A stretch of 34,278 nucleotides of DNA from IMG/VR virus record IMGVR_UViG_3300012942_000096, positions 1 to 34,278 of that record, one strand, 5' to 3'. The notes beneath the pieces were generated by a model, which was not told the origin of the DNA, did not search any database, and worked only from the letters and a program-made list of their open reading frames with translations. The translations under genes were made by a program, and so were the position numbers. This DNA is from a virus (taxonomy: Duplodnaviria; Caudoviricetes). Every line of letters starts with the position of its first letter. Position 1 is the first letter of the stretch. Below are positions 8,216-31,625 of the stretch, in pieces.

Positions 8216-8217
8216 GC

Positions 8218-8839: not shown

Positions 8840-9001
8840 ATGTCAGACAGATAGCCATTACGCAAACAAAATCTGATAACGGAATGGGACGCAAACGAGT
8901 GAATCCGTATAATCGTTGTATCGCTCGTTTGCGCTCTCAAACCTACAGGGTCGTTCTACTCCGTTCTCCCCTGTAGGTCTGAGGGCAAAAAGCCCAGACA
9001 T
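8840..9001 (+). ncRNA. Candidate three-hairpin small RNA (RNA-1)
   Basis: Stems 8855-62/8880-87, 8890-8902/8921-33, 8934-50/8969-85 with 17-18 nt loops; G-U pairs favour the + strand. Confidence 0.6.
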
Positions 9002-9049
9002 AAAAAAGCAGTCCAAAACAGTTACAATTTCAAATTGGAGTCTCCGACC

Positions 9050-9784
9050 ATGGCAAAATGGTTCGTTCGCGCTGAGCGCGGAAACGCAACTCACGACCAA
9101 CAGTGTTTCGATCAGCGAGAAACTGTTATCAAAATAGGTGGTATTGAAAAACGCCTACCTTTTAAACCGGCATGGGAAGTTGCTGCCGGTGTCAAAAAGT
9201 CCCTTATCGCTCACGGTTGGAGCAACGTTCGCGTTGTGCGAGTCGATCCGGCTCCATCATGCATGACAATAACCAAAACCATCGAGCTTGAACGGGACCG
9301 CGCATTGATGCGGATCACCGTCGAACTGCGCGAGGGGCACCCCACACTGTCGGACGGTTTTTCTGTGACGGCAGACCTATACGAGCCGCGCAAAACGCAA
9401 ACCGGACGGCAGCGGTACGAAATAGGGCGCGATATCGACGCGGGTGGCGCGATGCACGAGAAGATACTGCGATGGGCACCGGAACTAGCGCCGCTCGTGG
9501 CAGTACACCTTGCCGACCCTGATGGCACGCCAATGCACGCGGTTGCGAACGGGTGGTATTTCTACAGCGGCAAAGCGCGGGAGTGGGAAGAGGCACGTAA
9601 CGAGTCCTGGCACAACCGAGAGGGCCTGACCGACCACGAGCGTGCAGCGCGCGCGTTGCATATTCCCCCGGCCGATCTACCCGAGGGGATGGATAAAGAA
9701 CAGTTTGAGGCATTTGCCGAATCGTTGAGGACACGCTGGGCAGAGCAGGCCAGGGCTGCACGCGAGCTGTTAGAAATGCTCTGA
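9050..9784 (+). CDS. Hypothetical protein, probable chimera
   Basis: GGAGTC SD; marked GC increase after about 9290. Confidence 0.75.
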   Translation: MAKWFVRAERGNATHDQQCFDQRETVIKIGGIEKRLPFKPAWEVAAGVKKSLIAHGWSNVRVVRVDPAPSCMTITKTIELERDRALMRITVELREGHPTLSDGFSVTADLYEPRKTQTGRQRYEIGRDIDAGGAMHEKILRWAPELAPLVAVHLADPDGTPMHAVANGWYFYSGKAREWEEARNESWHNREGLTDHERAARALHIPPADLPEGMDKEQFEAFAESLRTRWAEQARAARELLEML

Positions 9785-9787
9785 AGG

Positions 9788-9946
9788 ATGACGCATGAAG
9801 AACAGTATCAAAACTGGCTTCGATCCCAAGAGCTAAAGGGTCGCAGACCTTTGCTCGAAGGTGAAATTAAACCAATTCATAATGATTGCACCTGTATTTA
9901 TAATGACCCAGATTGCATAGTTCATGGGAGCGGTCGTGCCCATTGA
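9788..9946 (+). CDS. Small CxC..CxxH protein (52 aa)
   Basis: Read manually: MTHEEQYQNW...CTCIYNDPDCIVH. Confidence 0.55.
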   Translation: MTHEEQYQNWLRSQELKGRRPLLEGEIKPIHNDCTCIYNDPDCIVHGSGRAH

Positions 9947-10160
9947 GTCAACGACAATTAATACATTTACTTGTTCAATTGTCGATTGTGAAATGACCAA
10001 AAATATAGCCGGAACATTAGAGCAAGCTTTTGACGAAGCTAAAAGTTTGGGGTGGGCATTAGAAGAAGCTATATTTAATAAGGTTTATGATTTTTGTCCA
10101 GAACATGCAAAAGAGCTTAAGCTATGGCTGAGTGGCGATGATTTTAAGGATAATGAATGA
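9936..10160 (+). CDS. Small putative Zn-binding protein
   Basis: CSIVDC...GW...DFCPEH; GGAG before GTG 9936. Confidence 0.7.
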   Translation: MPIESTTINTFTCSIVDCEMTKNIAGTLEQAFDEAKSLGWALEEAIFNKVYDFCPEHAKELKLWLSGDDFKDNE

Positions 10161-11368
10161 TTGAACTTCCATTGTTGCGTAACTCTGAACGCGCATGTTT
10201 TAAGCAATGCCAGGCCAAATGGAATTGGGCGTGGAACCGAGGGCTCACCCTGAAAATGGGCGTAAAAAGCGCGGCCTGGTTTGGCTCAGGAGTGCATTTG
10301 GCCCTTGCTGAGTGGTATACCCCACCTGGCGGGACTAATGGTTTTGCTCGCGGTCGCGATCCAAGAGAAACTTTAGACGAATACTTTAAAAATGAGTTTA
10401 CGACTATTTCGGCTGGTCCCTATTTTGATGAAGTAGCCGAAAAAGAATATTGGGACGCAGCAGAACTAGGCCAAATCATGATGACTGCCTATTTGGCAGA
10501 ATATGGCACAGATGATTCTTGGGAAGTTCTAATGCCTGAGACTCGTTTTGCTATGAAAATAGCTTTCAATAAAAAACAAATTGAGCGCCACGCTCCATAT
10601 GCATTATTTGGTAATGAAAGTGCTTTCATTACGAAAATGGTCGGTACGTTTGATATGCCAATTCGCGATCATACAGACGGGCACGTAAAAGTTGTTGACC
10701 ACAAGACAACCAATAAAAAAGAAAATCCGGTTTGGCTTCAATTTGATGACCAGACAGGTACATATATTGCTGTTTCAACTGCAATGCTACGAAAGCTTGG
10801 TTTTATCTCCGACAAAGAGGAAGTTGTTGGAGCGATTTGGAATTATCTACGCAAGGGTAAGCCTGACAGTCGTCCTCGTGATGCTCTTGGGCGTTGCTGC
10901 AATAAGCCTACTAAAAATCATTATTTGGATCAGTTGTTATCAAAACTTATGGGTTATGATGAATACACCCTTAAGAAGATGAAGGTAGACGAACTTGAGT
11001 CGCTTGCAGAAAAGCATGGAATTGATGTATTCGGAGATGTCTCCGCAAATCAACCGAGCCCATTGTTTTGGAGAATTGATTTGCGACGCAATAAAGCCAA
11101 TCGGTTACGTCAGCTTTCACGCATTGCCGATGACGCTGAACTCATTAATTTGGCTAAAGCGGGCGTTATTCCCATTACCAAAAACCCCGACGAACACTGC
11201 GCCTGGTGTGAATTTAAAGAACTATGCGCTGTAGACGAGGATGGCGGGGATACTGAACAATTCATTAAAGATGTTTTTAAAGTACAGGATATGTATGCAG
11301 ATCATCGCCCTAATGCGATAAACTCAAAATCAAGCGTTAAATCTCAAAAAGAAACCGGGGTAAAATAA
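10157..11368 (+). CDS. Cas4/RecB-like PD-(D/E)XK exonuclease
   Basis: SER..FKQC, FGSGVH, GTFD...VVDHKT, CAWCEFKELC (4-Cys cluster). Confidence 0.9.
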   Translation: MIELPLLRNSERACFKQCQAKWNWAWNRGLTLKMGVKSAAWFGSGVHLALAEWYTPPGGTNGFARGRDPRETLDEYFKNEFTTISAGPYFDEVAEKEYWDAAELGQIMMTAYLAEYGTDDSWEVLMPETRFAMKIAFNKKQIERHAPYALFGNESAFITKMVGTFDMPIRDHTDGHVKVVDHKTTNKKENPVWLQFDDQTGTYIAVSTAMLRKLGFISDKEEVVGAIWNYLRKGKPDSRPRDALGRCCNKPTKNHYLDQLLSKLMGYDEYTLKKMKVDELESLAEKHGIDVFGDVSANQPSPLFWRIDLRRNKANRLRQLSRIADDAELINLAKAGVIPITKNPDEHCAWCEFKELCAVDEDGGDTEQFIKDVFKVQDMYADHRPNAINSKSSVKSQKETGVK

Positions 11369-11369
11369 A

Positions 11370-11561
11370 ATGGGAAATGGTCCTGGCCTTAGCAAAAGCG
11401 TTAGCGGTGCTTTGCGTAATGCATCGAAAAGGTTCTATCTTAACCGTATCGCTCGCGAAGCGCAGGATCACGGATATACTGTAATTCATGGCACTGACCA
11501 TTCAAAAGACAAACCACTTCATTATGTAACGATTGGTTATCACGAAGAAAAAGAAGATTGA
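11370..11561 (+). CDS. Hypothetical protein
   Basis: 63 aa, packed in the operon. Confidence 0.65.
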   Translation: MGNGPGLSKSVSGALRNASKRFYLNRIAREAQDHGYTVIHGTDHSKDKPLHYVTIGYHEEKED

Positions 11562-11728
11562 GCCCACCTAAACCGAATCCACAAAAAGTACTATGGTGCC
11601 CATTTTGCGATTGGCATATGCACGATAGCTACCCCACTAGGAGGCGATTACTGGTTCATATGCTCGTGAAACACTATAGCGAATTAGCTTTTTGGGCAGG
11701 TACTATGCCGCCAGACTTAAAGGATTAA
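11558..11728 (+). CDS. Small C2H2-like zinc-finger protein (56 aa)
   Basis: Read manually from a TTGA overlap: CPFC-x16-HMLVKH. Confidence 0.6.
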   Translation: MSPPKPNPQKVLWCPFCDWHMHDSYPTRRRLLVHMLVKHYSELAFWAGTMPPDLKD

Positions 11729-11730
11729 AA

Positions 11731-12003
11731 ATGGCACCAACTTCTGTACTATTTATTGATATTCAAGAAACCAGCTCGAATACAATTTTCAAGCGCGCCC
11801 GTAAGCAACCTTTCTATTGGGTCGCGAAAAATAGCGGCAATGGGCGAGTCATGGCGATCAGTTCTGAGCGTTATACCAATAGACAAGACTGTGTTGATGC
11901 TGCTAGGCTGATCTTTGGGTCGGAGGTCAACGTTTACCTTCGCCAGGAAAACCAACCGAACCAACTGCTCCGTTACGCAACAAACGACCAACCGACTCAA
12001 TAA
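11731..12003 (+). CDS. YegP/DUF1508-like protein
   Basis: FYWVAKNSGNGRVMAISSERYTNRQDC pattern; SD AAGGA. Confidence 0.7.
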   Translation: MAPTSVLFIDIQETSSNTIFKRARKQPFYWVAKNSGNGRVMAISSERYTNRQDCVDAARLIFGSEVNVYLRQENQPNQLLRYATNDQPTQ

Positions 12004-12042
12004 AATATATCTTTAAAACCAGCCGACACTAAAACGAAAGAG

Positions 12043-13014
12043 TTGAATACACTCATGGTTGAAATTACGTCAGTTAAAGCTGACCTCCCGGCGTTGAATG
12101 TTCTGATTTACGCCGATTCCGGAGCCGGTAAAACGGTTTTCGCTGGTAGTGCCAGAAGGGTTCTATTCGTTGCTCCCGAAGATTCGGGTTTGCTTTCTGC
12201 GGCAATGATGGGAACTACAGCAGATAAAATCAAGGTGTCTTCATGGCAGGATTTTGTTGACGCTTATGAATACTGCTATGACAATCGGTTTGAATTGCAA
12301 GAAAAATATGACTGGATTGTTATTGACTCCGCAACTGAGATGCAGGGTTTGTGTCTTCGAGGAATTATTGAAGAAGAACGCCAAAAGCGTGTTTCTAAGG
12401 ATCAAGACCCCGATGTTCCCCAGATTCAGGATTACCAGAAGCTTTATATCCTGATGGAAAAGATGGTGTTGGCATTCAATGATTTGCCAATCAACACCCT
12501 TTACACTGCTCTGACGCGAAACGCAGAAGATGCAGACGGTGAAGAATTCCTTTTGCCGATGCTTGGTTCAAACAAGCCGACCGATTACCGAATTGCAATG
12601 AAGATTGCGGCTCACATGACCAGCTATGGTCATTTCAAGGTCGAAGTTGTTTCCAAGCCCGTCGATCCCGCCAAGCCAGACGGCGAAAAGAAAAAGGTAA
12701 AGCAGCGTGTTATCTATTTTGAAGATACTGGCGTTTTTCGCGGTAAGGATCGTACGACCCGGCTTGCGCCGAAGGTGGTTTTGCCGAGCAAGATGGCATT
12801 GCAGCGCGTTACCGATATCGCTCAGGGTTTGTGCGACAAGGACGGCAAGCCAATCGGCCAGCCTGCCAAAAAGACACCGGCCAAAAAGACACCGGCTAAG
12901 GCTGCGCCAAAGCAAGAGGCCAAACCACTGCCGCAAAGCACCACAGAAAACGTTGGGCAGGATGCACCTGTAAACGGAGAGGAATCACTTGAACTAAGTT
13001 CTGTCGAGGCATAA
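12043..13014 (+). CDS. AAA_24 / Sak4-like recombination ATPase
   Basis: LIYADSGAGKT, WIVIDS; PAKK-repeat tail; lies between the exonuclease and SSB-like genes. Confidence 0.85.
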   Translation: MNTLMVEITSVKADLPALNVLIYADSGAGKTVFAGSARRVLFVAPEDSGLLSAAMMGTTADKIKVSSWQDFVDAYEYCYDNRFELQEKYDWIVIDSATEMQGLCLRGIIEEERQKRVSKDQDPDVPQIQDYQKLYILMEKMVLAFNDLPINTLYTALTRNAEDADGEEFLLPMLGSNKPTDYRIAMKIAAHMTSYGHFKVEVVSKPVDPAKPDGEKKKVKQRVIYFEDTGVFRGKDRTTRLAPKVVLPSKMALQRVTDIAQGLCDKDGKPIGQPAKKTPAKKTPAKAAPKQEAKPLPQSTTENVGQDAPVNGEESLELSSVEA

Positions 13015-13053
13015 TAAAAAACAAGATCATAACCAAGAGAAAAGAGTCATAAA

Positions 13054-13716
13054 ATGCCGAAGTTCAATCTCAACATTAACGGTGTTGATGTCGAAGCTGC
13101 CGAAGGTCGCGAGGAATGGAAGGGTCCGCTTCCGCCGAAGGGTTCGTATCCGGCCAAGCTGCGCCTTGTTCAGGTCAAGCAAATCAGCGGCAAGACCGAT
13201 AATCGACTTTCGATTATGGCTGTGGTCAATACCAAGGGCGATCCCGAACGCGAACAGTATGACGGTTGCCCTTGCTGGGGCGGCGTCAATCTGACCGAAC
13301 AGGGAATTCCCTACATTAACCAGTTCTTGCAGTCAATCTCTAAGGATGAGGCTGACTACGAGAAGACCAAGAAAGCGTTCTATTCTGGATTCGTTACCGA
13401 TGAAAAGAAGACAAACGTTACGAAGATCGGAACCAAGAAGATCAATTCGCCCGAAGGTGAACTTGATATTCTGATTTCGCTTGGACATAACACCTGGAAT
13501 GGAAAGACGACAGCCAAGATTGCGTCATTCCTTGCGCCAGGAACTTCGCTCGACGGTGACGACGACGGTGACGACGCGGAAGAAGAAGTCGTTGAAGAAG
13601 ATGAAGACGACACCGACGTTGACGAGGACGAAGACGAGGACGCTGACGAGGACGAAGACGCAGCAGACGAAGGCGTTTTCGATGATGAAGAAGAAAACGC
13701 AAACGCAAACGCCTAA
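13054..13716 (+). CDS. Putative single-stranded DNA-binding protein
   Basis: LPPKGSYPAKL N-terminal motif, very acidic C-terminal tail, position after the Sak4-like gene. Confidence 0.65.
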   Translation: MPKFNLNINGVDVEAAEGREEWKGPLPPKGSYPAKLRLVQVKQISGKTDNRLSIMAVVNTKGDPEREQYDGCPCWGGVNLTEQGIPYINQFLQSISKDEADYEKTKKAFYSGFVTDEKKTNVTKIGTKKINSPEGELDILISLGHNTWNGKTTAKIASFLAPGTSLDGDDDGDDAEEEVVEEDEDDTDVDEDEDEDADEDEDAADEGVFDDEEENANANA

Positions 13717-13726
13717 AAAGATGTAA

Positions 13727-13798
13727 TGCGGGTCTAGAACTGAGTTAGCAGGCCGCAACAGAACGGTGGTACAGCCCTAACTGGCCCAGGCCACCACC
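13727..13798 (+). ncRNA. Candidate two-hairpin / pseudoknot RNA (RNA-3)
   Basis: TGCGG/CCGCA and GGTGGT/ACCACC stems; the loops carry complementary AGTTAG and CTAACT. Confidence 0.35.
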
Positions 13799-13801
13799 TT
13801 A

Positions 13802-13885
13802 GCTCTCGTGGCGGAATCGGCATACGCGATCGGCTTAAAACCGATTAGTTGAAAAACTATGTGAGTTCAAGTCTCACCGAGAGCA
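13802..13885 (+). tRNA. tRNA-Leu(UAA)
   Basis: Acceptor GCTCTCG/CGAGAGC-A, anticodon arm ATCGG-CTTAAAA-CCGAT, long variable arm, T arm GTGAG-TTCAAGT-CTCAC; CCA not encoded. Confidence 0.95.
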
Positions 13886-13921
13886 CGTCTTAATAAAAAG
13901 AAACCGACAACAGGAGTCGCC

Positions 13922-14065
13922 GTGACAGTTGCCATTGTAGTTCTTCTCAGTTTGAGTCTATTTGTTAATTTTCTGCAAGTTAGTCAACTTGCCGATATCA
14001 GGACGCACATTATCAAAATGAGCGTAACGACGATTCCTCATATTCCGAGCAATGGCAGAAACTAA
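13922..14065 (+). CDS. Small membrane protein (47 aa)
   Basis: Read manually: AGGAGTCG then GTG; MTVAIVVLLSLSLFVNF. Confidence 0.6.
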   Translation: MTVAIVVLLSLSLFVNFLQVSQLADIRTHIIKMSVTTIPHIPSNGRN

Positions 14066-14267
14066 GCTATTTCTCGTTACTAAAGAAGACACGATAGTAC
14101 AGGTAAGCACCTACCTTGTTCGCGCTTATGATGAAGAAATGGCAAGATCGTTTGTTGACTCTGGCATGTTCATTGAAGAAAGCGCTCCTACAACATTAGA
14201 AACCCTAGAATCACATACGCGAAGCGTAGAAGAAATTACACCGGAAGGTAACGGTCAGCAACGATGA
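14052..14267 (+). CDS. Hypothetical protein
   Basis: 71 aa, coupled to neighbours. Confidence 0.7.
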   Translation: MAETKLFLVTKEDTIVQVSTYLVRAYDEEMARSFVDSGMFIEESAPTTLETLESHTRSVEEITPEGNGQQR

Positions 14268-14608
14268 AAGCTGAAAAAGGTAAAGAACTCCCCGCATTTG
14301 ATCTGACAAAAATTGATGAAAAAGCCGCGCAGGCTGACAACAAGATCATTACCAAAGTCTTTACCGTTACTGGTGCCGAATACGATATCATTCCGGGTTC
14401 GTTCAAGTTCAAAATCAGTGTCGGGGATCGTCCCCAACATTTCGTCCAGTTTAAAGCTGTGATGCCCCATGTTCTTAAAGAAACCATTGGCGCTAATGCA
14501 AGAGATAATGTGCGCAATATTGCTCTTAAGCTTCACACCATGGAATTCTTTCCTGCCCACATTGCCGGTGTCGCTTACCTGGCCGACGACGCGGAAGACG
14601 ACCAGTGA
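14264..14608 (+). CDS. Hypothetical protein
   Basis: 114 aa, ATGA overlap. Confidence 0.75.
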   Translation: MKAEKGKELPAFDLTKIDEKAAQADNKIITKVFTVTGAEYDIIPGSFKFKISVGDRPQHFVQFKAVMPHVLKETIGANARDNVRNIALKLHTMEFFPAHIAGVAYLADDAEDDQ

Positions 14609-14943
14609 CCAGTATTGATGGCATGATTGACCGTGAGGGAGTCGCGTATCTGGGTCGCATTGCCAAAGCCCTAGAGCGCCAGGCAGACGTGATGGAGCGC
14701 GACGTACCCGAAGAACCGGAAGACGCAGTAATCACTCCGGTTGAAATTTCAGTAACTAAAATGGTTGCGGAAAGATGGCAGAATCACGTTAATCACTTGG
14801 GAATGCAACTTGAAGATATAGTTGTATCTTATCCCCCAACAAGCGAAGGTCGTATTAAGGCAACACGTTCGTTAATTAATAAGATGAAGCAATTTACCCT
14901 TGATGTTGACGACGAGGGAACCATCACCGATAGACAATCTTGA
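14605..14943 (+). CDS. Hypothetical protein
   Basis: 112 aa, GTGA overlap. Confidence 0.75.
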   Translation: MTSIDGMIDREGVAYLGRIAKALERQADVMERDVPEEPEDAVITPVEISVTKMVAERWQNHVNHLGMQLEDIVVSYPPTSEGRIKATRSLINKMKQFTLDVDDEGTITDRQS

Positions 14944-14966
14944 TTTAAGTACCAACGGAGTAGCTT

Positions 14967-15350
14967 GTGCCTAAAAAGCTTATCATTCTAGAACACACTA
15001 ATGGTCACGTCGAAGAAATGCAGGATCACACCGACTGGTTTGTAGAGCAATTTGGTGAAACCGGCGCGGTAGGATATTACGACACAATAGTTAACCGAGC
15101 AATCACGCTCGCTGGCGGGATTAAGAAGATCAAGCGTCTTGCCCGCTGGAACGGAAATCTAATTACGCAAGACTTCGTGCTGTATGGATATAATATGCTT
15201 ACTTTAAAGCGAGAAGTTAAGCATATTGGTCCCGACAAGCTTGCCGAAGTTATTTGTGAATTTGTCAAAGAATTCATTGGTTTCAAACCCAGCGACGATC
15301 TTTGTGAATTATTTGGTAAAGCTGTTTACGGCGAAATGGTGGAAACATGA
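14967..15350 (+). CDS. Hypothetical protein
   Basis: 127 aa; SD GGAG. Confidence 0.75.
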   Translation: MPKKLIILEHTNGHVEEMQDHTDWFVEQFGETGAVGYYDTIVNRAITLAGGIKKIKRLARWNGNLITQDFVLYGYNMLTLKREVKHIGPDKLAEVICEFVKEFIGFKPSDDLCELFGKAVYGEMVET

Positions 15351-15363
15351 TTTGGGTGGTTAA

Positions 15364-22200: not shown

Positions 22201-22209
22201 AAGGTAGCA

Positions 22210-22959: not shown

Positions 22960-22971
22960 TATTAAAGATGC

Positions 22972-23005
22972 TGACAGCCCCGCCCGAAATGGGCGGGGTA
23001 TGTCA
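22972..23005 (+). terminator. GC-rich hairpin after the peptidase (no U tract)
   Basis: TGACA-GCCCCGCCC-GAAAT-GGGCGGGGT-A-TGTCA. Confidence 0.55.
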
Positions 23006-23022
23006 TAACAGAAAGGAAAATT

Positions 23023-23349: not shown

Positions 23350-23355
23350 ATTTGA

Positions 23356-23742
23356 ATGACCGGCATTCCAGAAATTAATGAAGATATTCCCCTTGGCATG
23401 GTAACTACTCCATTATTGGAGAATATGTGCCATGGTTTTGAACCAGATAATATCCATGCCCAAGCGCGCAATGCGTGGGAGCCCTGCATTCAGTGCGGAG
23501 AGCGACCGACGCACTGGCCGGGCCATGTCTCGCGGCAGCAATTAGCTGAGTACGCCCAAGCTCGTACGCGAGAATTAGCGCCAGAAGCCGATCAACTTTT
23601 GAAAGCAATGGAAGTTAAAGGTATATCTGACGAACAATATGAAACTCTGTTTAGCAGATATTATATGAATCTTGGCGAGCAACACGCGCTAAGAGCAGTC
23701 ACAGAATGGGCCAGGGAAAATGTCATCATCACAGGAGAATAA
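23356..23742 (+). CDS. Hypothetical protein
   Basis: 128 aa; C..F...CIQCG..H motif. Confidence 0.75.
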   Translation: MTGIPEINEDIPLGMVTTPLLENMCHGFEPDNIHAQARNAWEPCIQCGERPTHWPGHVSRQQLAEYAQARTRELAPEADQLLKAMEVKGISDEQYETLFSRYYMNLGEQHALRAVTEWARENVIITGE

Positions 23743-23743
23743 A

Positions 23744-24112
23744 ATGTCTGGTTATGGTATAGAATTTGAAAAAGAACTAACAAGTCTTATTAATAAATAT
23801 AATATTGATTCAAACCTTAACACGCCAGATTTTATTCTTGCCGCTGCAATGCGTCGAATTCTTCCGATGTTGAGTAGTTTTGTAGCTGAACGCGATCACT
23901 GGTGGGGCTTTGTTCCCGAAATAGGCAATCCCCATATTGCTAGTCATGGTCGCAGCTTTCCGCCTCTGAAAAATAGATTTGCTGATCTTAAAACTGCTGA
24001 TAAAGTCTTTGAAACTCTTAATTATCTTATGAATGATGGTGGGTGGACACCGGAAGCTATCAGAGAATTCCAAAATCAGGCAGTGAAAAGAATTTTTGAA
24101 CTATCTGTATGA
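23744..24112 (+). CDS. Hypothetical phage protein
   Basis: SD AGGAG; ELTSLINKY...NTPDFILA motif familiar from phage proteins. Confidence 0.75.
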   Translation: MSGYGIEFEKELTSLINKYNIDSNLNTPDFILAAAMRRILPMLSSFVAERDHWWGFVPEIGNPHIASHGRSFPPLKNRFADLKTADKVFETLNYLMNDGGWTPEAIREFQNQAVKRIFELSV

Positions 24113-24127
24113 CAATAGGGGTTAAGA

Positions 24128-24586
24128 ATGGGTAAGCGAAAGAGCGATATTCGTAAGGCAAAAGCTAGGGAAGCTCGCAAGACAACACGCAAAGATAACG
24201 TCAAAGTTAATCAGGGCGTTGCTGTCGGTAAGTGGACTGATGTCCGTAGAGGCCAGGTTGTCGCTGAGGGAACGTACATCGACGGTCAAGGTGTTTTGCG
24301 TGATGCAAAAGACGGATCGGTGGCGACTTGGCATGTCAACGAGAAAACTCGCAGGTCATTAGGGTTGACCGGCCCGTGTGTGCGCCGAGGAATCGCCCCG
24401 GCAGAGATCGCGTACGACCCCGAAACAGGTGCTCCCTGGTGCCCTGAGTGCTGGCCGGTGGAGCAAAAAAGGCGACAAAAGGAAAAGCTAGAACAAGAAT
24501 TCAATGATTTAGTTGAATCTTTTAATAGCATTCCTCTTATTGGAGATGAATTGGCCAAGGCGTTCAGAGGACTATTTGCAAAATGA
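24128..24586 (+). CDS. Hypothetical protein
   Basis: 152 aa; basic N-terminus, WCPEC. Confidence 0.75.
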   Translation: MGKRKSDIRKAKAREARKTTRKDNVKVNQGVAVGKWTDVRRGQVVAEGTYIDGQGVLRDAKDGSVATWHVNEKTRRSLGLTGPCVRRGIAPAEIAYDPETGAPWCPECWPVEQKRRQKEKLEQEFNDLVESFNSIPLIGDELAKAFRGLFAK

Positions 24587-24754
24587 GAAGGTCACAGAAG
24601 AAAAAGTTCAAGATGAAATTGGTTGAGAACAGTCGTTCAGATCAAATTTCATGGGAGTGCGTTTGAGGGACTAGGTTGGTGGCATGGTCAAGTAATCACG
24701 CCAGGAACACGCTTTACTATAAATCGCTGGTGGTTTTGGAATATGGGAGTTTAA

Positions 24755-25060
24755 ATGCAGCTTGAAAACAGCCATGGCGGGTATGCTGGTCGGTCGCTAG
24801 TCAATGTGATGCAAGAGACTTTGGACAAAACCTTAGTTGAGTTTGAAGAAATGAATGATAAAGAAGGTGTTGAATTTGATGAAGTAGTTTGTGATCGACT
24901 TCAAGGTATGGTTGCTGGTATGGCAAAAATGATCGGCATTATTCGCGGTACCAGCGTGCAAACCGAAATCCAAGAATCCCGCCAGCGGATTCGTGAGCGT
25001 CAGATGACAAATGAAGAATTAAGTGAAGATATCAACGCGGTAGGAGTCGAAAGAAGGTGA
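24755..25060 (+). CDS. Hypothetical protein
   Basis: SD GGGAG. Confidence 0.75.
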   Translation: MQLENSHGGYAGRSLVNVMQETLDKTLVEFEEMNDKEGVEFDEVVCDRLQGMVAGMAKMIGIIRGTSVQTEIQESRQRIRERQMTNEELSEDINAVGVERR

Positions 25061-25494
25061 CCAAAAGATCAAAAAAGCAAAGGATGCTCGAATCTAAAGC
25101 TTTAAAGTATCGTTCTCAATTAAACTATGAACCAGGACGTGTAAGTTTAGATAAAACTAGAAATGAAATTTGGCGTCCGGTTAAAGATTATGAAGACAGT
25201 TATTTAGTTTCAAATAAAGGTAGAACATATTCTTTACCAAGATGGGTTATTCGTAGACCCAATAAAAAAATGTTTCTGCGCGGCGGTGTTATGAGACCTT
25301 TATCAAATAATGTTGATAATGTTCTTCGTGTTCAATTGTATTGTAACGCAACGCCTGTCGTACGTGAGGTTCTGTCATTACAACGAGAAGTATTCTCGGA
25401 CAACGAAATTGACTTCACGATAAGACCGAGCGAGGTCAATATCGGCTGGTCGGTACCCGACGAGATACCGATTGACTTTGGGCCGAATATGTAG
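25057..25494 (+). CDS. NUMOD4-domain protein lacking an HNH domain
   Basis: EIWRPVKDYEDSYLVSNKGR. Confidence 0.75.
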   Translation: MTKRSKKQRMLESKALKYRSQLNYEPGRVSLDKTRNEIWRPVKDYEDSYLVSNKGRTYSLPRWVIRRPNKKMFLRGGVMRPLSNNVDNVLRVQLYCNATPVVREVLSLQREVFSDNEIDFTIRPSEVNIGWSVPDEIPIDFGPNM

Positions 25495-25528
25495 TGGTGC
25501 AGGGGGTTTGACGCGCCGCTATGTTGTG

Positions 25529-25554
25529 CCACAGGGGTTTTCGAGCCCCTGTGG
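25529..25554 (+). other. Strong hairpin / inverted repeat upstream of the primase gene
   Basis: CCACAGGGGTT-TTCG-AGCCCCTGTGG, followed by -10-like TAGTCT (25557-62). Confidence 0.6.
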
Positions 25555-25687
25555 GCTAGTCTGATAGGTCCACCGGCAGCCAATTTTGCCACATTTGCGT
25601 TATGCAAATGGTGATGGAGTCGTGGCTTAAGAGGGTTTTAATTGTGTTTTGAGTCGTCATTATTAGAGAACGGAGTTGTTTTAAACG

Positions 25688-28441
25688 ATGGGTTCTACAG
25701 TCCAACACATGAATCCCTATCGGGAAACGTCACTGAAATACAAAAAATCAGGTTGGCATGGACCGTTACCTATTCCACATAAGCAAAAGAATCCTCCGCC
25801 GACAGGGTATACCGGCCACCGTGCGCCGTATCCAGATGTTAAAAAGATAGAAGAATGGCGCGCGTCATCTAAAAGACAGAATATTTGCATTCGTCTTGCA
25901 GGTGTTGATGACGAACATGAGATTATTGGTATTGACGTTGACCACTATCAAAAAGCTGGTAAAGAAAAACGTGGTGGCGATCAGTTAAAAATTCTTGAAG
26001 CTCAGTACGGAAAACTTCCTGATACGTGGATCAGCTCAGCGAGAACTGATGGTATTTCGGGTATTCGGTACTTCCGTGTACCGCGAGGGATGGCCTTTCG
26101 TGGTCAGGTTGATAAAGATATCGAATGCATTTCTAAAGGATATCGTTTTGCGGTAGTTTGGCCGAGCTTGCATCCTGAAGGTAGTACATATTGGTGGTTT
26201 CCGCCAGGCATTACCCCTGATGAGCTAGGTCGTGGAATTTGGGATGGCTCAGACCTTCCTCAAGCAAAAGATTTACCAATTTTACCTGATGTTTGGCTTG
26301 AATATTTAAGTCAAAACAGGATGCGGGCCGATTTAGATGACCGCATCGACATGGATTCAACCCCAAATCAAATTTATGAGTGGGCTGATGCAACGTTTCA
26401 TGGCGAAGACGAAACCCCGATGTGCAGATTATATCGGGATAAGATCGCAAAGCACAAAAAACTTATTGTTGAAGAAGCTACATTTCACGATAAAATCGTA
26501 AACGGTCATTATAATCTCATTCGTCTTGCTGCTGAAGGCCATGTTGGTTGGAATGAAGCAATCAATGAGTTTGAACAAATTTGTTTAGACAAGGTTCAAT
26601 CTGGTCAAAAAGATCGCGGCCGACAAGAAATTATTGATGAAATTTGGCGCAGTCGTGTTAATGGGTTACGAAAAGTCAAAGCGCAGTGTGACGAGCAAGT
26701 GCGAATTGGCGCAAACCCTGTTTTGGCTCGCTGTGACGAGCCTGGGGGTATCTGCTACACCGGCTCAGATGCCAGCATGCCGACAAACGACGATGGCGAC
26801 GCCCCGCCACCGGATGACCCGCTTGAAGATATACCACGCGGTGCTGCTCTACCAGTTGACGAGTATCGCCTTAATGATGATGGTAATGCAGATCATCTTA
26901 TTGATATGTTTTCATCGTTAGAAACCGGTCCAGCTTTTCGTTATGCAGAAGGTTATGGCTGGATCATTTGGCATAAAGGCAAAGGCGATGAGCAGCCGCA
27001 TTGGCAACTTGATTCAGAAGGAAATCAAGAGATGCGGCGTATGTTTCAACGTATTCGTGATCGTCAAGAAGATTATGTTGAAACTGCTTTACTACCAGCA
27101 TGGAAAGCATTGCAGGCTCAGCTTGATGCTCAGTTAGCCAGCCCTGTTCCTGTTCCTAATGGTATTACTAAAGTTGATGTGCAGCAGGCAAAGGATAAGT
27201 ATTACGAATGGAAAAAATTCAGTGTAGCCAATGGGAACAATCGCAACGCCAACAATGCTATCGAGGCTGCCAAGTCGATAAGCGGGGTTTCTATCTCTGT
27301 GAACAATCTGGACAGAAACCCGTTGTTACTCGGTGTGGCTAACGGTGTTTTAGAGCTTGGTATTGACGATGTGCGACTTCGCGAGGCAAAACCAGATGAT
27401 TTGGTAACTCTTAATACTCATGTTTCCTATGAACAACCAAGCAAGTTAGCGCAATCAACGTGGGAAAGATATTTAGATACATTCTTGCCCGACCTTGAGC
27501 TAAGACGAATCGTACAAATTATTATGGGTCATTGTATTATTGGTGGCAATCCAGAGAAAATAATTATTGTTCTGAAAGGACAATCTGAGACCGGTAAATC
27601 AACAATGTTATCGGCGATTCAATCAGCTCTTGGTGATTATGCTGCACCGGTAAATGAAGGCATGTTTCAATCTGGGCATTTTAATGAAGTACTGGCTAAT
27701 GCTCTCGACAAACGTGTTGTGGTGTGTTCTGAGTTTGATTCATCTATTAAAATGAGTGCTTCGATGGTGAAACGTTTAACAGGAAATGATACTATTTCAG
27801 TTCCTATTAAACATAGTAATGCTGTCAAAGAGGGCGAAGTTCAATTTGTGACAATATTGGCAACGAATGCAACACCACACATTGAGGGTGCCGATAGAGC
27901 GTTGCTTAACAGATTAAAGGTTATTCCATTTGAGACAAAACCACAACATATTGATAGATCGCTGTCTAATGTTGTAATTCAAACGTGCGCACCGGCTGTT
28001 TTATGGTGGTTGATCGAAGGCTATAGACAATATACAACGATTGGATCGTTGCCAACAAGTAAGATTATTGATGATACAACAGAAAGTTTTATGGATGAAC
28101 TTGATCCTGTGGCTATGTTTTTATCTGAAACTACGATCAAACATAGTCATTTCGGTAGAAATATTGAGTGGAAAAATGAGCCAGAATGGTGTGTAAAACG
28201 TGATGATGTCTTTCGTCACTATGAGCAATGGTGCGAAAATAACAAAATTCCTAATCGTGAGCGAATTAGTCCTCACATGCTTACAAGACGCTTGCGTTCA
28301 CTCGGGGTGATCGACAGCGGCAACCGTCTTGTGTCGGTCGGGGGCAACGCTGGCCGGTATTGGTTCGGGATCAAGCTGCGCAAGCTGCGCCGGGGAGGCA
28401 ACGTGTTCCCGATGAGGACCGAATCGGAGGATCAGCAGTGA
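25688..28441 (+). CDS. Bifunctional primase-polymerase fused to a D5/P4-like SF3 helicase
   Basis: K.PP.TG, IIGIDVD, VVWPSLHP; LLGVANGVL, GQSETGKST, VKRLTGND, ATN, NRLKVIPF. Confidence 0.93.
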   Translation: MGSTVQHMNPYRETSLKYKKSGWHGPLPIPHKQKNPPPTGYTGHRAPYPDVKKIEEWRASSKRQNICIRLAGVDDEHEIIGIDVDHYQKAGKEKRGGDQLKILEAQYGKLPDTWISSARTDGISGIRYFRVPRGMAFRGQVDKDIECISKGYRFAVVWPSLHPEGSTYWWFPPGITPDELGRGIWDGSDLPQAKDLPILPDVWLEYLSQNRMRADLDDRIDMDSTPNQIYEWADATFHGEDETPMCRLYRDKIAKHKKLIVEEATFHDKIVNGHYNLIRLAAEGHVGWNEAINEFEQICLDKVQSGQKDRGRQEIIDEIWRSRVNGLRKVKAQCDEQVRIGANPVLARCDEPGGICYTGSDASMPTNDDGDAPPPDDPLEDIPRGAALPVDEYRLNDDGNADHLIDMFSSLETGPAFRYAEGYGWIIWHKGKGDEQPHWQLDSEGNQEMRRMFQRIRDRQEDYVETALLPAWKALQAQLDAQLASPVPVPNGITKVDVQQAKDKYYEWKKFSVANGNNRNANNAIEAAKSISGVSISVNNLDRNPLLLGVANGVLELGIDDVRLREAKPDDLVTLNTHVSYEQPSKLAQSTWERYLDTFLPDLELRRIVQIIMGHCIIGGNPEKIIIVLKGQSETGKSTMLSAIQSALGDYAAPVNEGMFQSGHFNEVLANALDKRVVVCSEFDSSIKMSASMVKRLTGNDTISVPIKHSNAVKEGEVQFVTILATNATPHIEGADRALLNRLKVIPFETKPQHIDRSLSNVVIQTCAPAVLWWLIEGYRQYTTIGSLPTSKIIDDTTESFMDELDPVAMFLSETTIKHSHFGRNIEWKNEPEWCVKRDDVFRHYEQWCENNKIPNRERISPHMLTRRLRSLGVIDSGNRLVSVGGNAGRYWFGIKLRKLRRGGNVFPMRTESEDQQ

Positions 28442-28444
28442 AGA

Positions 28445-28756
28445 TTTACACTTCTGGGCCGAAAAAGTGTAAAAAAAATCAAGAAGTGTAAATAAGTGTA
28501 AATGCCTCTGACCAGCAGTTATATAGCACTTTTTACTAGATTTACACTTATTTACACTTTTTGGTCAAAACTTCTCTATACGCGCGAGGGGAGATGATGG
28601 GTGGTCGTGTCGTGCGTCTCGCGCCTCGCGTTCCTATTACGAAACTTTGCGGGACAAAAGTGTAAATCGACCAAAAGTGTAAAAACCGCAGGTCAGAGCT
28701 GTTTTAGAACGCTAAAAAGTGTAAATGGGCAGGTCAAAGCCTAAAAAAAGTGTAAA
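28445..28756. repeat. Iteron cluster, putative replication origin
   Basis: Ten copies of AAGTGTAAA (7 forward, 3 reverse) plus CTCTGACCAGC / GCAGGTCAGAG. Confidence 0.8.
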
Positions 28757-28774
28757 TGACTGTAGGATGGGGCC

Positions 28775-29107
28775 ATGGGACACCTGAAGCCGAATAGCAC
28801 GCCGGGTCGCTCGGAGATGAGCCATGGCCGTGGGCGCTACCCCGATCCGAGAAGTGATTTCCAAAGTAATAGGAATCTGGTTTTTCCCCAGGGCGATGAT
28901 GAAAATGACTTGGTGATGGCATACCAGGCGAGTCTGCGAACGGACGCTACCGTTCCAGATGATGTAATTATGCCTGATATGCTTTATGTCAAAGGTAATC
29001 CTGATGCATTTGGTCCTGGGCCGGAATTAGTTCAGGAAAAGCCGAATCTTCCTCGTGGCGGGTATCCTCAACCGTTCTTGCGCTATGGCGTCATTCGTGA
29101 CGATTAA
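28775..29107 (+). CDS. Hypothetical protein, probably leaderless
   Basis: TAGGAT (28763-68), 6 nt, then ATG. Confidence 0.7.
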   Translation: MGHLKPNSTPGRSEMSHGRGRYPDPRSDFQSNRNLVFPQGDDENDLVMAYQASLRTDATVPDDVIMPDMLYVKGNPDAFGPGPELVQEKPNLPRGGYPQPFLRYGVIRDD

Positions 29108-29124
29108 TTAAATTAGGTGGAGTC

Positions 29125-30522
29125 GTGTCGATTCTAGATGATCTTAATCCCCAAGTTGGTCATTCCAACGATCAGGTTAAGATGTGCGCAAGATGTCGTG
29201 AGCAAAAACCTATCGGTTGTTTTAACCGTAATAAAACCACAAAAGATGGTTTGTATGCGTATTGCCGTTCGTGCCAACGTGAAATCCGTAAGGGATATCG
29301 CGAGTCTAAAAAAGATATGTACTTAGTCAGCAATCGTTTTGACGCAATGATTAAGGGTCAACTCGATCTGAATGTTTTAACTATTCAAGAACTTACCGGT
29401 GGTTTCATTGTCTTAGAAGATGGCACAAAACAGGACGTTTCAGTTGCAGGAAAGGCATTTCAAAACAAGTTTGGTCTTGAATTAACTCGTCGTTTAAACA
29501 AGGTTCTACGCAAGGGCTCTAGTCGTGCTCTTGAGGTTATCTATGAAATTATGGATAGCGACCTTGTTGAACCAGCGGACAGATTCAAAGCTGCCCAATG
29601 GTGGACCGAAAGAGTTATGGGCAAAACTCCTGATATCTTGCATATTGGAACGGAGACGCAACCTCATGAATCTATTTTTGAAACTCTTGTCGGCGGTTCT
29701 CGTGAGGATCATCGAGCGAAGCAACTTGGCCAAGCGATTGATGCAGAAGTTGTCGATATTCAAGACGCAAATGTGGTTGAAGACGAAACCGGTTCGCGCA
29801 GTGATAACGAATCCGATCGTTTCGTGGGCGAACAAGTATTGCAACGAAGCGGGCAAGACGTGGATAGCGAAGCATTCGATGGGATGGATGCAGATAATCG
29901 AACAGCCAACGAAACCGATTCGGATACCAGGAACGGATTACGCGGTGGCAGACGTGAAGATCACCGAATTCGTGTCGGAACCGATGTCGTCCAAAACGTT
30001 GGAGGATTGGCAGGAAATCGAACGACAGATAATCGAGCAGAATCTTCCCATTCCGACGTTGGGAGAAACGTTGGAACAGTTTTCGGAGAGGATGAAGCAA
30101 CGGGGTCTGCTCAACAGCAAGGCATCTCTGTACGAGAGCCAATCAATGATGGAAATGCAGGAAAATCAAGCCAAGCAGAACAAGCTGCGAATGCAATCGT
30201 ACTAAAACAACAAGAGAAAAAGGCTCTCCGCAAGCGTTTAAATGATGCAAAAAAGCGCCGTTTTGCTGCGAGAGCGGTCGGGGCCACATCTCTGGACGCA
30301 GCACCGTGGTTGATCGACTGGCGGGTCACTGAGGATGGGCTACGGGCGTGTCTGGTACCGCCGAGCGCGCAAACACCGGCTAAGCTGTCGGTGATCGCAG
30401 CGAATGCACAAGCAACTGATGATGAACAGTTCGTTGCAACGCAAAGAGCTAATATTTTGCAAATGAAAGCTCAAAAGTTGCAAGAAAAAGCACAAAAAGC
30501 GTTAGGAAAAGCAAATGCTTGA
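29125..30522 (+). CDS. Terminase small subunit-like protein with N-terminal Zn finger
   Basis: VEPADRFKAAQWWTERVMGKTP and IDAEVVD motifs reminiscent of actinophage TerS; upstream of TerL. Confidence 0.55.
   Translation: MSILDDLNPQVGHSNDQVKMCARCREQKPIGCFNRNKTTKDGLYAYCRSCQREIRKGYRESKKDMYLVSNRFDAMIKGQLDLNVLTIQELTGGFIVLEDGTKQDVSVAGKAFQNKFGLELTRRLNKVLRKGSSRALEVIYEIMDSDLVEPADRFKAAQWWTERVMGKTPDILHIGTETQPHESIFETLVGGSREDHRAKQLGQAIDAEVVDIQDANVVEDETGSRSDNESDRFVGEQVLQRSGQDVDSEAFDGMDADNRTANETDSDTRNGLRGGRREDHRIRVGTDVVQNVGGLAGNRTTDNRAESSHSDVGRNVGTVFGEDEATGSAQQQGISVREPINDGNAGKSSQAEQAANAIVLKQQEKKALRKRLNDAKKRRFAARAVGATSLDAAPWLIDWRVTEDGLRACLVPPSAQTPAKLSVIAANAQATDDEQFVATQRANILQMKAQKLQEKAQKALGKANA
29771..30205 (+). 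CDS. Nested out-of-frame ORF (144 aa) inside the TerS-like gene
   Basis: MWLKTKPVR...; protein-like composition where the TerS frame looks disordered. Confidence 0.45.
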   Translation: MWLKTKPVRAVITNPIVSWANKYCNEAGKTWIAKHSMGWMQIIEQPTKPIRIPGTDYAVADVKITEFVSEPMSSKTLEDWQEIERQIIEQNLPIPTLGETLEQFSERMKQRGLLNSKASLYESQSMMEMQENQAKQNKLRMQSY

Positions 30523-30760
30523 GGCGAAAACCTTCACGGCAGTGACTACGCCGACGCTTTTGTCTTTGCCTAATGCGGCTCTGATTAGAAATAACGGTAC
30601 TGATACTGTCTATTTCGGTGGGCCAAATGTTACTGCGGACACTACCGCCACTGGTGGATTTCAGTTAGCTTCGGGCGAAAAACTTCAAGTTAACGATGCA
30701 GAAGACGTATATTTCGTTATTGCCTCTGGAAAATCCGCAACAATCACTGTTTTGAGCTAG
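30515..30760 (+). CDS. Small beta-rich protein, possibly virion-associated
   Basis: IRNNGTDTVYFGGPNVT...GFQLASGE; SD AGGA. Confidence 0.75.
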   Translation: MLEAKTFTAVTTPTLLSLPNAALIRNNGTDTVYFGGPNVTADTTATGGFQLASGEKLQVNDAEDVYFVIASGKSATITVLS

Positions 30761-30769
30761 GAGATTCAA

Positions 30770-31027
30770 ATGGCTAAGCGCATGAAGAAGATGTACGACG
30801 GTCGCAATGTTGCGACTCGTCCGATTCCGGTGATTGTGGATGAATCTGAACGTCGTGCAATTGCAGCAGCAGCGAGCGATTCCAAGCCTTTGGGCGATGT
30901 TGTGCAAATGCCTTCTGGGCCGCGTGCCAAGGCTGCTGGATCGGGCGTTTTGGGCAAGCCTGTTCGTGGCGGTGCTCGCATTAAGGCCGGTAACTATAAC
31001 CCAATTGGCGTTGACGGCAACCGCTAA
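30770..31027 (+). CDS. Hypothetical protein
   Basis: SD AGGAG. Confidence 0.75.
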   Translation: MAKRMKKMYDGRNVATRPIPVIVDESERRAIAAAASDSKPLGDVVQMPSGPRAKAAGSGVLGKPVRGGARIKAGNYNPIGVDGNR

Positions 31028-31065
31028 ATAAAAATTTAAATAGAGTTGTTATGATGATCTCGGTG
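31016..31065 (+). repeat. 50-bp perfect direct repeat, copy 1 (contains a promoter)
   Basis: GGCAACCGCTAAATAAAAATTTAAATAGAGTTGTTATGATGATCTCGGTG. Confidence 0.97.
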
Positions 31066-31091
31066 AATCATGGGAACTGCGGGAATGAACG

Positions 31092-31394
31092 GTGATGGAT
31101 GACGACGAAGACGGCCAGGGATATGACCTGGTGATGCCGTTCCTGCCGGTGCAGTCGAACGGCGGTCCACACAGCGACGATGCGTACGTTGCTGGGTACG
31201 AGATGGGGCTGCTTGACGCGCAGTTGGGCAAGAGTGAGTTCGAGCAGGGGCGCTCGATACACGCCGAGAATCGGGAGCAAGCCGACCTGATCGCCATGCG
31301 CCACGGCTATATATCTGAGTTCACCAGCGACGACGGCACCGGCTGGGTCTGCATGAAGGTGCGCCCACTCACGTCGAATATCAGGTTTACGTAA
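31092..31394 (+). CDS. GC-rich acquired hypothetical protein
   Basis: 100 aa with high-GC codons, between the direct repeats. Confidence 0.75.
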   Translation: MMDDDEDGQGYDLVMPFLPVQSNGGPHSDDAYVAGYEMGLLDAQLGKSEFEQGRSIHAENREQADLIAMRHGYISEFTSDDGTGWVCMKVRPLTSNIRFT

Positions 31395-31494
31395 GAGCAA
31401 AAGAATATCGGCATGGGAGAGATGACCTTGTGGGATCACGTCTGGCCGTGGCTGCGTCACCCGCTCAGCACGGGCCGGGCCGATAAGTGCCCCT

Positions 31495-31544
31495 GGCAAC
31501 CGCTAAATAAAAATTTAAATAGAGTTGTTATGATGATCTCGGTG
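31495..31544 (+). repeat. 50-bp perfect direct repeat, copy 2 (extended -10 TGT-TATGAT at 31526-34)
   Basis: Identical to 31016-31065. Confidence 0.97.
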
Positions 31545-31625
31545 TCGCCGGTCACACGGTCTCATAACGACACCATTCCCCGCGCACGGTACTGACGACT
31601 CCCCGTTGCTGCGGGGATTTGGTGT
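31541..31625 (+). ncRNA. Candidate two-hairpin small RNA (RNA-2)
   Basis: Predicted +1 at G31541 coincides with stem GGTGTCG/CGACACC; second stem TCCCCGC..ACGG/CCGT..GCGGGGA. Confidence 0.6.

Follow-up and report, generated by a model that had tools for sequence, protein, structure and literature searches.

The window analysed here, a 34,278-nucleotide (nt) stretch of viral DNA (IMG/VR record IMGVR_UViG_3300012942_000096), carries at 8890-8995 a two-hairpin element (element 1) that begins no more than about 60 nt past the stop codon of a gene homologous to gp79 of phage Patience (the gp79-like gene), and sequence comparison identifies this element as a real, uncatalogued and conserved phage RNA structure whose 3' loop mirrors a private tag at gene starts. 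It is likely that RNA from this element pairs in trans with the tags and thereby represses the tagged genes. A preliminary description of this DNA had proposed a trans-acting code in which element 1 and an unrelated structure at 31541-31625 (element 2) read the starts of phage genes through their loops. There is good support for such a code in the case of the element-1 3' loop, because the fold is conserved, complements of the loop are enriched at gene starts in most of the phages tested, and loop and target appear to have changed together in some comparisons; it is moderately supported for the 3' loop of element 2, and a further part of the proposal, in which the two loops of one RNA clamp the same start region, did not hold.

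A conserved two-hairpin element behind the gp79-like gene

The region 8840-9001 folds with -58.9 kcal/mol (z -5.88), which none of 200 shuffled sequences equalled, and contains two firm stems, each with an 18-nt loop (8903-8920 and 8951-8968), in agreement with the firm stems and large loops described for it at the outset. The same two-hairpin arrangement was found behind the gp79-like gene of Oaker, Predator, Barnyard and DrLupo, in which the stems differ and the loop retains UCCGUU. The Konstantine locus is identical to that of Oaker, and three further copies lie behind the gp79-like gene in the IMG/VR contigs G003, G004 and G005. A covariance model built from eight sequences (the window, Oaker, Predator, Barnyard, DrLupo, G003, G004 and G005) detected two copies outside its own sample, in G001 and in G002, where the copy is displaced behind an inserted gene, and no others in 61 sources (1.0 Mb); in total, nine relatives carry element 1. 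In an RNAalifold alignment of seven sequences, 13 of the 15 pairs of the conserved stem had changes on both sides and the UCCGUU core of the loop was kept. The sequence of the 5' loop, on the other hairpin, is not conserved across nine homologs.

Other relatives have different structures at the same site. A single hairpin followed by a U-rich tail occupies it in Patience, Labelle and G008. Two hairpins are present in both G006 and G007; those of G006 are of a different kind, and those of G007 were not scored by the covariance model. The first hairpin of element 1 resembles the terminator of Patience, but the tract that follows it differs, with 8 T out of 12 positions in Patience and G008 and 2-4 out of 12 in seven relatives that bear the element. 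No intrinsic terminator, defined as a short-loop hairpin with a U-tract, was found in 8100-9200. A TATAAT in the first loop of element 1 was considered as a promoter and rejected, since it is not conserved in the homologs. A pattern scan for the element-1 loop returned 38 loci, two of which are known homologs and the remainder chance-like. The Rfam scan of the window gave only one tRNA and two sub-threshold mir-279 matches, with no family for either element and no match to 6C/B11, C4, RNAIII or RsaE; the Oaker and Patience loci and 12 related loci likewise had no Rfam match, 6C/B11 included.

The 3' loop and the start tag

Start association was assigned by a single annotation-free gene-calling rule, with a background of 7-10% of positions (8% in the window), and the loops were compared with 20,000 shuffles that kept their composition, including a variant with UCC held in place. 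All three complements of at least 9 nt to the element-1 3' loop in the window lie at gene starts (Table 1; p 0.002, and the same with UCC kept). When each relative was searched with its own loop at this length, 8 of 16 complements were at starts in Oaker (p 0.0004), 7 of 11 in Predator (p 0.0005), 4 of 6 in Barnyard (p 0.004) and 5 of 11 in G005 (p 0.018), so that the enrichment over shuffled loops that the preliminary description had called for was obtained in five of the seven phages tested in this way. The loop had been said to complement a motif recurring at gene starts, which is borne out for matches of at least 9 nt and not for the full motif, since GAGAACGGAG, the complement of the loop, has a single occurrence in the window, at 25666 in the primase leader, as an 11-nt match. 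When all hairpin candidates with large loops were ranked blindly at 9 nt, overlapping candidates being counted separately, the element-1 loop came first of 121 in the window, first of 680 in Oaker, first of 647 in Predator and second of 558 in Barnyard, and it was listed fourth in G005.

The tags recur at corresponding genes. For instance, Oaker gp76 and Predator gp75, which lie directly upstream of the polymerase gene as does the tagged gene at 14967 in the window, are also tagged, and the orthologs of the gene at 5346 are tagged in Oaker, Predator, Barnyard and G004 and untagged in DrLupo; the start of this ortholog is the best loop match in G004 (11 nt). Furthermore, loop and target differ together in some comparisons. 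The loops of Barnyard and DrLupo differ by one base, and the leader of the same gene has the complementary base difference, such that the loop and leader match perfectly over 12 nt in Barnyard and 14 nt in DrLupo, each being the best match of its genome. When loops were exchanged on the window, its own loop had three of three matches at starts and other AACGGA-type loops had from 0 of 1 to 1 of 4. The variable 5' part of the loop extends the complementarity to single leaders beyond the core (12 nt for Oaker gp76, 14 nt for DrLupo gp57 and 15 nt for gp53 of PBI1, a cluster D phage). The expected covariation of loop and tag among relatives is thus clear for Barnyard and DrLupo and for the window compared with cluster H1, which are few independent events, and does not extend to the H-type loops, which are largely interchangeable.

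The composition of the tag suggests how it may differ from an ordinary Shine-Dalgarno (SD) sequence. Leaders in Oaker and Predator have AGAAACGGACA or AGAACGGACA a few bases upstream of the ATG. The usual SD hexamer of the relatives is AAAGGA, with 11 of 18 copies at starts in Oaker and 17 of 31 in Predator; the tag is AAAGGA with one inserted C, for which the loop has a matching G, and the variants ATCGGA and ACCGGA also occur upstream of starts. Before annotated starts (gene 1 excluded, and some starts being misannotated), AACGGA was found at 16 of 53 later genes vs 0 of 38 structural and lysis genes in Oaker, at 9 of 51 vs 0 of 40 in Predator, at 1 of 62 vs 1 of 47 in DrLupo, and at 1 of 63 vs 1 of 46 in Patience, which has no element. 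Each cluster H genome has two antisense copies of the 8-nt core, one of which is the loop itself.

The loops of G005 and G002 do not have the extra G and are plain anti-SD sequences; that of G002, ACCUCCUUU, contains CCUCCU, which is the anti-SD given for mycobacteria (PMC12274833). Such a plain anti-SD loop is probably the older state, as we infer the direction of change. It is also conceivable that the RNA is an anti-SD mimic aimed mainly at host messages for host shut-off, with the phage tags being secondary. The plain loops of G002 and G005, the C-rich loop of G001, which is without a phage tag, and the slowing of mycobacterial growth by B11 overexpression (PMC10470900) would fit this explanation, but the extra G in the loops of the window and cluster H weakens pairing with AAAGGA and suits the phage tags, and we regard it as very improbable.

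The preliminary description had also assigned a role to the 5' loops, which were to pair with start codons in the antiparallel order needed to clamp SD and AUG. The matches of these loops to start codons are at chance level (p 0.27-0.74 for element 1 and 0.14-0.23 for element 2), and the three best matches of the element-1 5' loop, of 10 nt, are all inside genes. A clamp by two loops was therefore rejected, as the 5' loops are not conserved and their start matches are no better than those of shuffles. Pairing can reach the AUG in Predator, where a duplex with a single bulge could extend to the start codons of gp53 and gp57, and the loop involved is again the 3' one. The primase leader alone has a 5'-loop match (6 nt) in addition to a 3'-loop match. 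It is also matched by the 3' loops of both elements, over 11 nt for element 1 and 9 nt for element 2, as had been claimed.

Several observations speak against a loop that reads start tags, or narrow its scope. The 9-nt cut-off was set after the matches in the window had been seen, and shorter matches in the window are weak (7 of 25 at starts for 7 nt, p 0.08; 3 of 5 for 8 nt, p 0.065); with a looser definition of starts, matches of 7-8 nt gave p 0.03-0.07 in the window and no signal in Barnyard and DrLupo. The DrLupo loop had 2 of 5 matches at starts (p 0.09) and was outside the top 4 of 591 loops, G004 had 1 of 2 (p 0.21), G001 0 of 6 and G007 0 of 1, and there was no loop match of at least 9 nt in the 7.8 kb of G003 and no convincing start match in the 11.9 kb of G002. 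Among Oaker, Predator, G003 and G004, one loop can stand in for another, and by duplex energy a genome's own loop is frequently outscored by a foreign one. In addition, Oaker and Predator, and likewise Barnyard and DrLupo, are related pairs, several Oaker tags lie in copies of one repeated leader, the tag is missing at single orthologs (DrLupo gp64 and gene 43 of the window), and AACGGA is not early-specific in Barnyard (2 of 63 later vs 3 of 45 structural and lysis genes). A sigma-70 promoter scan around element 1 gave nothing above chance, with no promoter or terminator match, and folding favours the + strand in 5 of 10 homologs, with G-U pairs pointing both ways.

Part of this would be expected if the hairpins acted only in cis, as terminators or 3' stabilisers, and their pyrimidine loops matched purine-rich SDs by composition. 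Hairpins lie behind genes for top-abundance proteins in Patience (PMC4324244), a plain terminator-like hairpin is at the site in Patience and G008, and several homologs are without a start signal. However, the shuffles retain composition and UCC, the core of the loop stays the same as the stem sequence changes, Patience has few tags, and what the loop-tag rule predicted for PBI1 was found there (see below). An explanation in cis alone is therefore, in our view, improbable.

Element 2 and hairpins in other phage clusters

Element 2 folds with -37.6 kcal/mol (z -2.62), and 1 of 200 shuffles was equally good. Its 3' loop, of 13 nt, was predicted to be open (mean unpaired probability 0.92, and 0.83 for the seed of element 1), consistent with the large loops described for it, while the 5' hairpin folds differently in the minimum free energy structure. 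As previously noted, the 3' loop is the complement of GGAGTCG, a motif that recurs at gene starts: of 10 copies in the window, 6 are start-associated by the uniform rule, one of them overlapping the GTG itself and one being doubtful, and the sole antisense copy is the element-2 loop. By comparison, 2 of 45 copies in 11 relatives are start-associated, and the tag is private to this phage; it accounts for 5 of 23 GGAG-type SDs. The loop exceeded shuffled loops with p 0.005, and with p 0.03 when CUCC was kept, so that the signal persists with the SD core retained. The 9-nt match in the primase leader was equalled by 0.2% of random windows.

The site of element 2 has a traceable history. The gene upstream, at 30770, encodes a homolog of gp4, a protein abundant in Patience particles (PMC4324244 Table S1). 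Since the perfect 50-nt direct repeat in this region includes the end of the 30770 gene, element 2 probably once lay directly behind that gene, from which it would have been shifted by an insertion of 429 nt; this stretch between the repeat copies contains a 100-amino-acid gene that shares a short region of similarity with one from D12, Taptic and related phages. Relatives have long hairpins at this site, and in 14 of 18 loci the gene is followed by YCCAC, where the YCCAC loop sits on a purine-then-pyrimidine stem. At least 12 relatives have a conserved two-hairpin motif behind the homolog of the 30770 gene, with loops GUCCGG and YCCACG, freely changing stems and a terminator-like tail, for which there is no Rfam match (L081:2350-2430, L093:3564-3650, L079, L078, L080, L087, L091 and L094-L098). 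Element 2 does not align with these YCCAC hairpins and shares their place with a different sequence. The loop of the GUCCGG/YCCACG motif may read leaders that contain GTG, although the test is weak and partly circular. For element 2, a search for terminators gave one weak site, in an alternative fold, when 1.2 were expected by chance.

The primase leader recurs among the matches of loops at the element-2 site. It is matched in the same genome at 7-9 nt, by different sequences, in four of nine phages (the window, G001, G006 and PBI1) and in three of five further contigs (L084 and L090, with one common loop, and L091), and in Patience a match of 8 nt falls in the leader of the gene that directly precedes primase. 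Furthermore, a loop of G006, GUGACUGACCUCC (L071, behind 12077), which is at the element-1 site, resembles the element-2 loop of the window, and both of its nine-base matches are at candidate starts, one of them being the primase leader. Weighing on the other side, no homolog of element 2 was found by sequence in the relatives, and a pattern scan gave three loci, all without the hairpin; the relatives' loops at this site have a weak start enrichment (6-11 of 37-57) that is partly circular, as they contain the complement of GTG; and five of the nine phages and two of the five contigs have no primase-leader match, the sites without one including those of Oaker, Predator, Barnyard, DrLupo, L080 and L099. 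Taken together, the chances appear about even that element 2 represents another RNA built like element 1 and directed at a tag of its own.

The cluster D phage PBI1 was analysed after the loop-tag rule had been fixed. Several of its starts bear a tag of another sequence, AGAAGGGAAT, which occurs seven times in sense orientation. Apart from a copy marking the start of gp41, a leftward gene, the antisense form occurs once, at record position 1589. There it occupies the loop of a hairpin of 14 bp, placed behind gp2 and before the terminase region (L150:1565-1613); this hairpin overlaps the annotated small gene gp3, and its loop mirrors the AGAAGGGAATC start tag; 15 nt of the loop are complementary to the gp53 leader. 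Five of 12 loop matches are start-associated (p 0.0012), and the loop ranked first of 530 in the blind ranking. At the element-1 site, PBI1 has hairpins without start matches.

A similar arrangement is known in cluster K, whose start-associated sequence (SAS) is an asymmetric, phage-private motif located a few bases upstream of the starts of non-structural genes, with a lone reverse copy (PMC3203893), and whose role is still described as unknown (PMC11373665, 2024). In the cluster K phage Anaya, the lone reverse SAS (record position about 59870; L142:34830-34905) is intergenic and forms the apical loop of a long hairpin, and 16 sense copies were found in the 35.8 kb examined. The hairpin stretch is present in 150 records; among six aligned loops, two are intact, one is one base off and three are absent. 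The reverse loop is kept in LilPharaoh and has a one-base variant in Hammy, and no intact copy was found at Anaya's place in Yuna, Hurricane, Pixie and TM4 (47.8 of 52.8 kb examined).

Function, known systems and genome context

Under repression in trans, transcription of the gp79-like gene would read through into the element and yield a + strand RNA at the 3' end of an abundant message, because the first hairpin does not have the U-tract that is present in Patience and G008. In Patience, gp79 yielded the most peptides of all proteins at 2.5 h (682, vs 145 at 30 min; PMC4324244 Table S1), and therefore the 3' end of this transcript may be plentiful late, as far as a relative without the element can indicate, so that the RNA would accumulate as infection proceeds. 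The loop would seed a duplex of 9-14 bp across the spacer from SD to AUG (predicted at about -12 to -23 kcal/mol for the loop alone) and block ribosome loading, resulting in repression of early and replication genes, primase included. The extra C in the tag and G in the loop would let the RNA distinguish tagged phage messages from ordinary SDs.

What favours repression over activation is the position of the tag in several genes (Oaker gp50 and gp53; Predator gp49, gp50, gp52 and gp58), downstream of a normal AAGGA SD and ahead of the AUG; it fills the spacer there, and pairing should hinder the ribosome. An RNA that pairs with the tags and instead activates, by opening leader structure or by aiding starts on leaders with poor SDs, could account for the replacement of the normal SD by the tag in about half of the tagged Oaker genes and for tags that are partly paired in local folds (unpaired probability 0.15-0.5). 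Since such a duplex would also mask everything from the SD position to the AUG, activation seems quite unlikely.

The main rival to repression by the RNA is a protein that binds the tag, as a translational repressor or at an oriented DNA site, with the hairpin being a minus-strand decoy or a reversed operator. Folding does not fix the strand, drift in the specificity of one protein would also change tag and hairpin together, and the variants ATCGGA and ACCGGA upstream of starts would pair incompletely with the loop. For cluster K, the choice between RNA and protein was left open for SAS (PMC3203893), and later work has put forward a phage protein for the SAS genes (PMC11373665). On the other hand, all called genes of the window are on the + strand and the element follows closely on the gp79-like gene, a conserved leftward promoter was not seen (in the window, the only sequence inspected for it), and matches of 12-15 nt to single leaders exceed the needs of a protein that binds a consensus. 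The neighbouring protein of 8312-8833 has 30 environmental homologs, the closest being 76% identical and encoded on a 70-kb contig; it had no consistent Pfam family among these homologs and no fold match in the PDB, RNA-binding folds included, and therefore no RNA-binding partner is proposed. On balance, we consider a protein with a decoy rather unlikely.

Pairing between loops and SDs is well known from RNAIII and RsaE of Staphylococcus aureus, which are host RNAs with C-rich loops. The elements here are alike in their proposed loop-SD pairing and unlike them in that RNAIII and RsaE are host-encoded and C-rich in their loops. In mycobacteria, the open loops of 6C/B11 pair with ribosome-binding sites (RBSs) and repress translation, as supported by reporters and loop mutants, without a known chaperone (PMC10470900). 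This is the same kind of hairpin-loop/RBS pairing in a mycobacterial cell as is proposed here, but 6C/B11 is host-encoded and uses two C-rich loops against generic G-rich SDs, whereas one loop and a phage-private tag would be used here. The c4 antisense RNA of P1/P7 is, as proposed here, a trans-acting phage RNA whose loop complementarity blocks an RBS of its own mRNA; it has a single target (ant) and serves temperate immunity (PMC12197685), in contrast to the 3 to 16 tagged starts found here and the absence of an Rfam C4 match. SviR of the Vibrio satellite PLE is a trans-acting small RNA of a mobile element that lowers phage gene translation in lytic infection, but it is directed by a satellite against its helper, and its abstract does not mention a shared private start tag (bioRxiv 10.1101/2022.04.08.487710). 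Cluster K SAS resembles the tags in being an oriented private motif before non-structural starts with a lone reverse copy, which holds for Oaker and Predator and not for Barnyard; it differs in sequence, the AACGGA and GGAGTCG types being unlike the SAS consensus GGGATAGGAGCCC when compared by eye (PMC3203893), and its hairpin is unrelated in sequence. No paper linking the reverse SAS copy to an RNA was found in a literature search, nor one describing the present RNAs; most subscription papers were outside this search, as were the supplements of PMC10690425, a source of candidate lists of about ten thousand viral structured RNAs, which may hold these motifs.

The finding bears on two questions, how gene expression is ordered in cluster H and U mycobacteriophages and what SAS has been doing since its description in 2011; in Patience, no strong SigA-like promoters were found (PMC4324244). 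If the proposed function is true, a whole set of genes could be turned off without any protein, by an RNA that recognizes a private tag through one loop, and mycobacterial genetics would gain a small orthogonal tool for controlling translation from a tag-loop pair that works. Cultured Mycobacterium smegmatis phages carry the element, namely Oaker, Predator, Konstantine, Barnyard and DrLupo, with analogs in PBI1 and Anaya, and this makes it directly testable. Tentatively, and with more doubt than confidence, we suggest a translational clock of actinophages, in which private SD dialects are read by mirror RNAs at the 3' ends of abundant mid or late transcripts that silence their own gene sets and spare host and virion genes. 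The loops would have started as plain anti-SD mimics and become private through matched changes in loop and tag, two RNAs would meet on the primase leader, and the same principle could explain cluster K SAS and the cluster D tag.

The window is a relative of the cluster H/U mycobacteriophages, from which its host can be taken to be actinobacterial. Its genes for helicase, exonuclease, Sak4, DnaE, primase-helicase and terminase are in the same order as in clusters H and U, and its helicase is 54-57% identical to the counterparts in Predator, Patience, Oaker, Barnyard and DrLupo. The first gene is a homolog of Oaker gp53, and therefore most of the early region, which in Oaker includes nine tagged genes (gp40-gp53), lies outside the view. 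A first viral scan gave four weak loci (31% over 59 amino acids), a search of genome contigs recovered no relative, and among the matches listed in a metagenome scan there was only the window's own contig. Among the sequencing runs listed there was one DNA run, which may be the source, and no RNA run. The features are collected in Table 1.

Table 1. Positions of the elements, putative tags and associated genes in the window
Feature	Position	Strand	Remark
Tag, 9-nt complement (element 1)	1555..1563	+	before gene at 1572
Weak 7-nt match to element-1 loop	2563..2570	+	before gene at 2574
GGAGTCG tag, SD position	3115..3122	+	before gene at 3128
GGAGTCG tag	3428..3434	+	abuts GTG at 3435
Weak 7-nt match to 5' half of element-1 loop	5333..5339	+	before gene at 5346
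Host gene of element 1	8312..8833	+	homolog of Patience gp79 / Oaker gp64; all-helical; no known family
Element 1, first hairpin	8890..8933	+	loop unconserved; at site of terminator-like hairpin in Patience and G008
Element 1, second hairpin	8934..8985	+	conserved stem, 13/15 pairs change on both sides; putative tag-reading loop 8951-8968
Element 1, short closing hairpin	8983..8995	+	without U-tract
GGAGTCG tag	13913..13919	+	before small gene at 13922
Tag, 10-nt complement (element 1)	14954..14963	+	before gene at 14967, itself before DNA polymerase
GGAGTCG tag, SD position	25043..25049	+	before HNH gene at 25057
Best window match (9 nt) to element-2 loop	25651..25659	+	primase leader; second match, 8 nt, at 25616
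Tag, 11-nt complement, window's best for element 1	25666..25676	+	primase-helicase leader
Primase-helicase gene	25688..28441	+	sole gene with leader matching both 3' loops
GGAGTCG tag	29119..29126	+	overlaps GTG at 29125 (small terminase-like gene)
Gene upstream of element-2 site	30770..31027	+	homolog of Patience gp4
50-nt direct repeat, copy 1	31016..31065	+	end of 30770 gene and AT-rich spacer
50-nt direct repeat, copy 2	31495..31544	+	perfect repeat
Element 2, two hairpins	31541..31625	+	3' loop 31590-31602 complementary to GGAGTCG

Some further observations were made in these regions. The leader of the gp79-like gene has a conserved small GGAC...GTCC hairpin preceded by AACC or CAAC (8255-8280 in the window, and also in Patience, Oaker, Predator and G002), which is possibly a promoter or an autoregulatory site. 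The noncoding stretch 28443-28757, 3' of the primase gene, contains AAGTGTAAA 10 times, counting both orientations, together with an inverted repeat of 24 bp at 28480-28563, and looks like an origin or a packaging or end region. A hairpin lies between the SSB-like gene and a tRNA (13755-13798 in the window; L013:26804-26850); its loop in Patience has GACUGGCAUCU in common with the first loop of Oaker element 1, and the window loop contains ACUGGC. The tRNA of the window is tRNA-Leu(UAA), at 13802-13886, and Patience has tRNA-Gln at the same place. In addition, AATTAGGTG occurs at three gene starts in the window (3420, 21610 and 29111) and is extended to AATTAGGTGGAGTCG in two of them, and the G005 contig has a GOLLD RNA (L074:6796-7236; Rfam RF02032, 226 bits).

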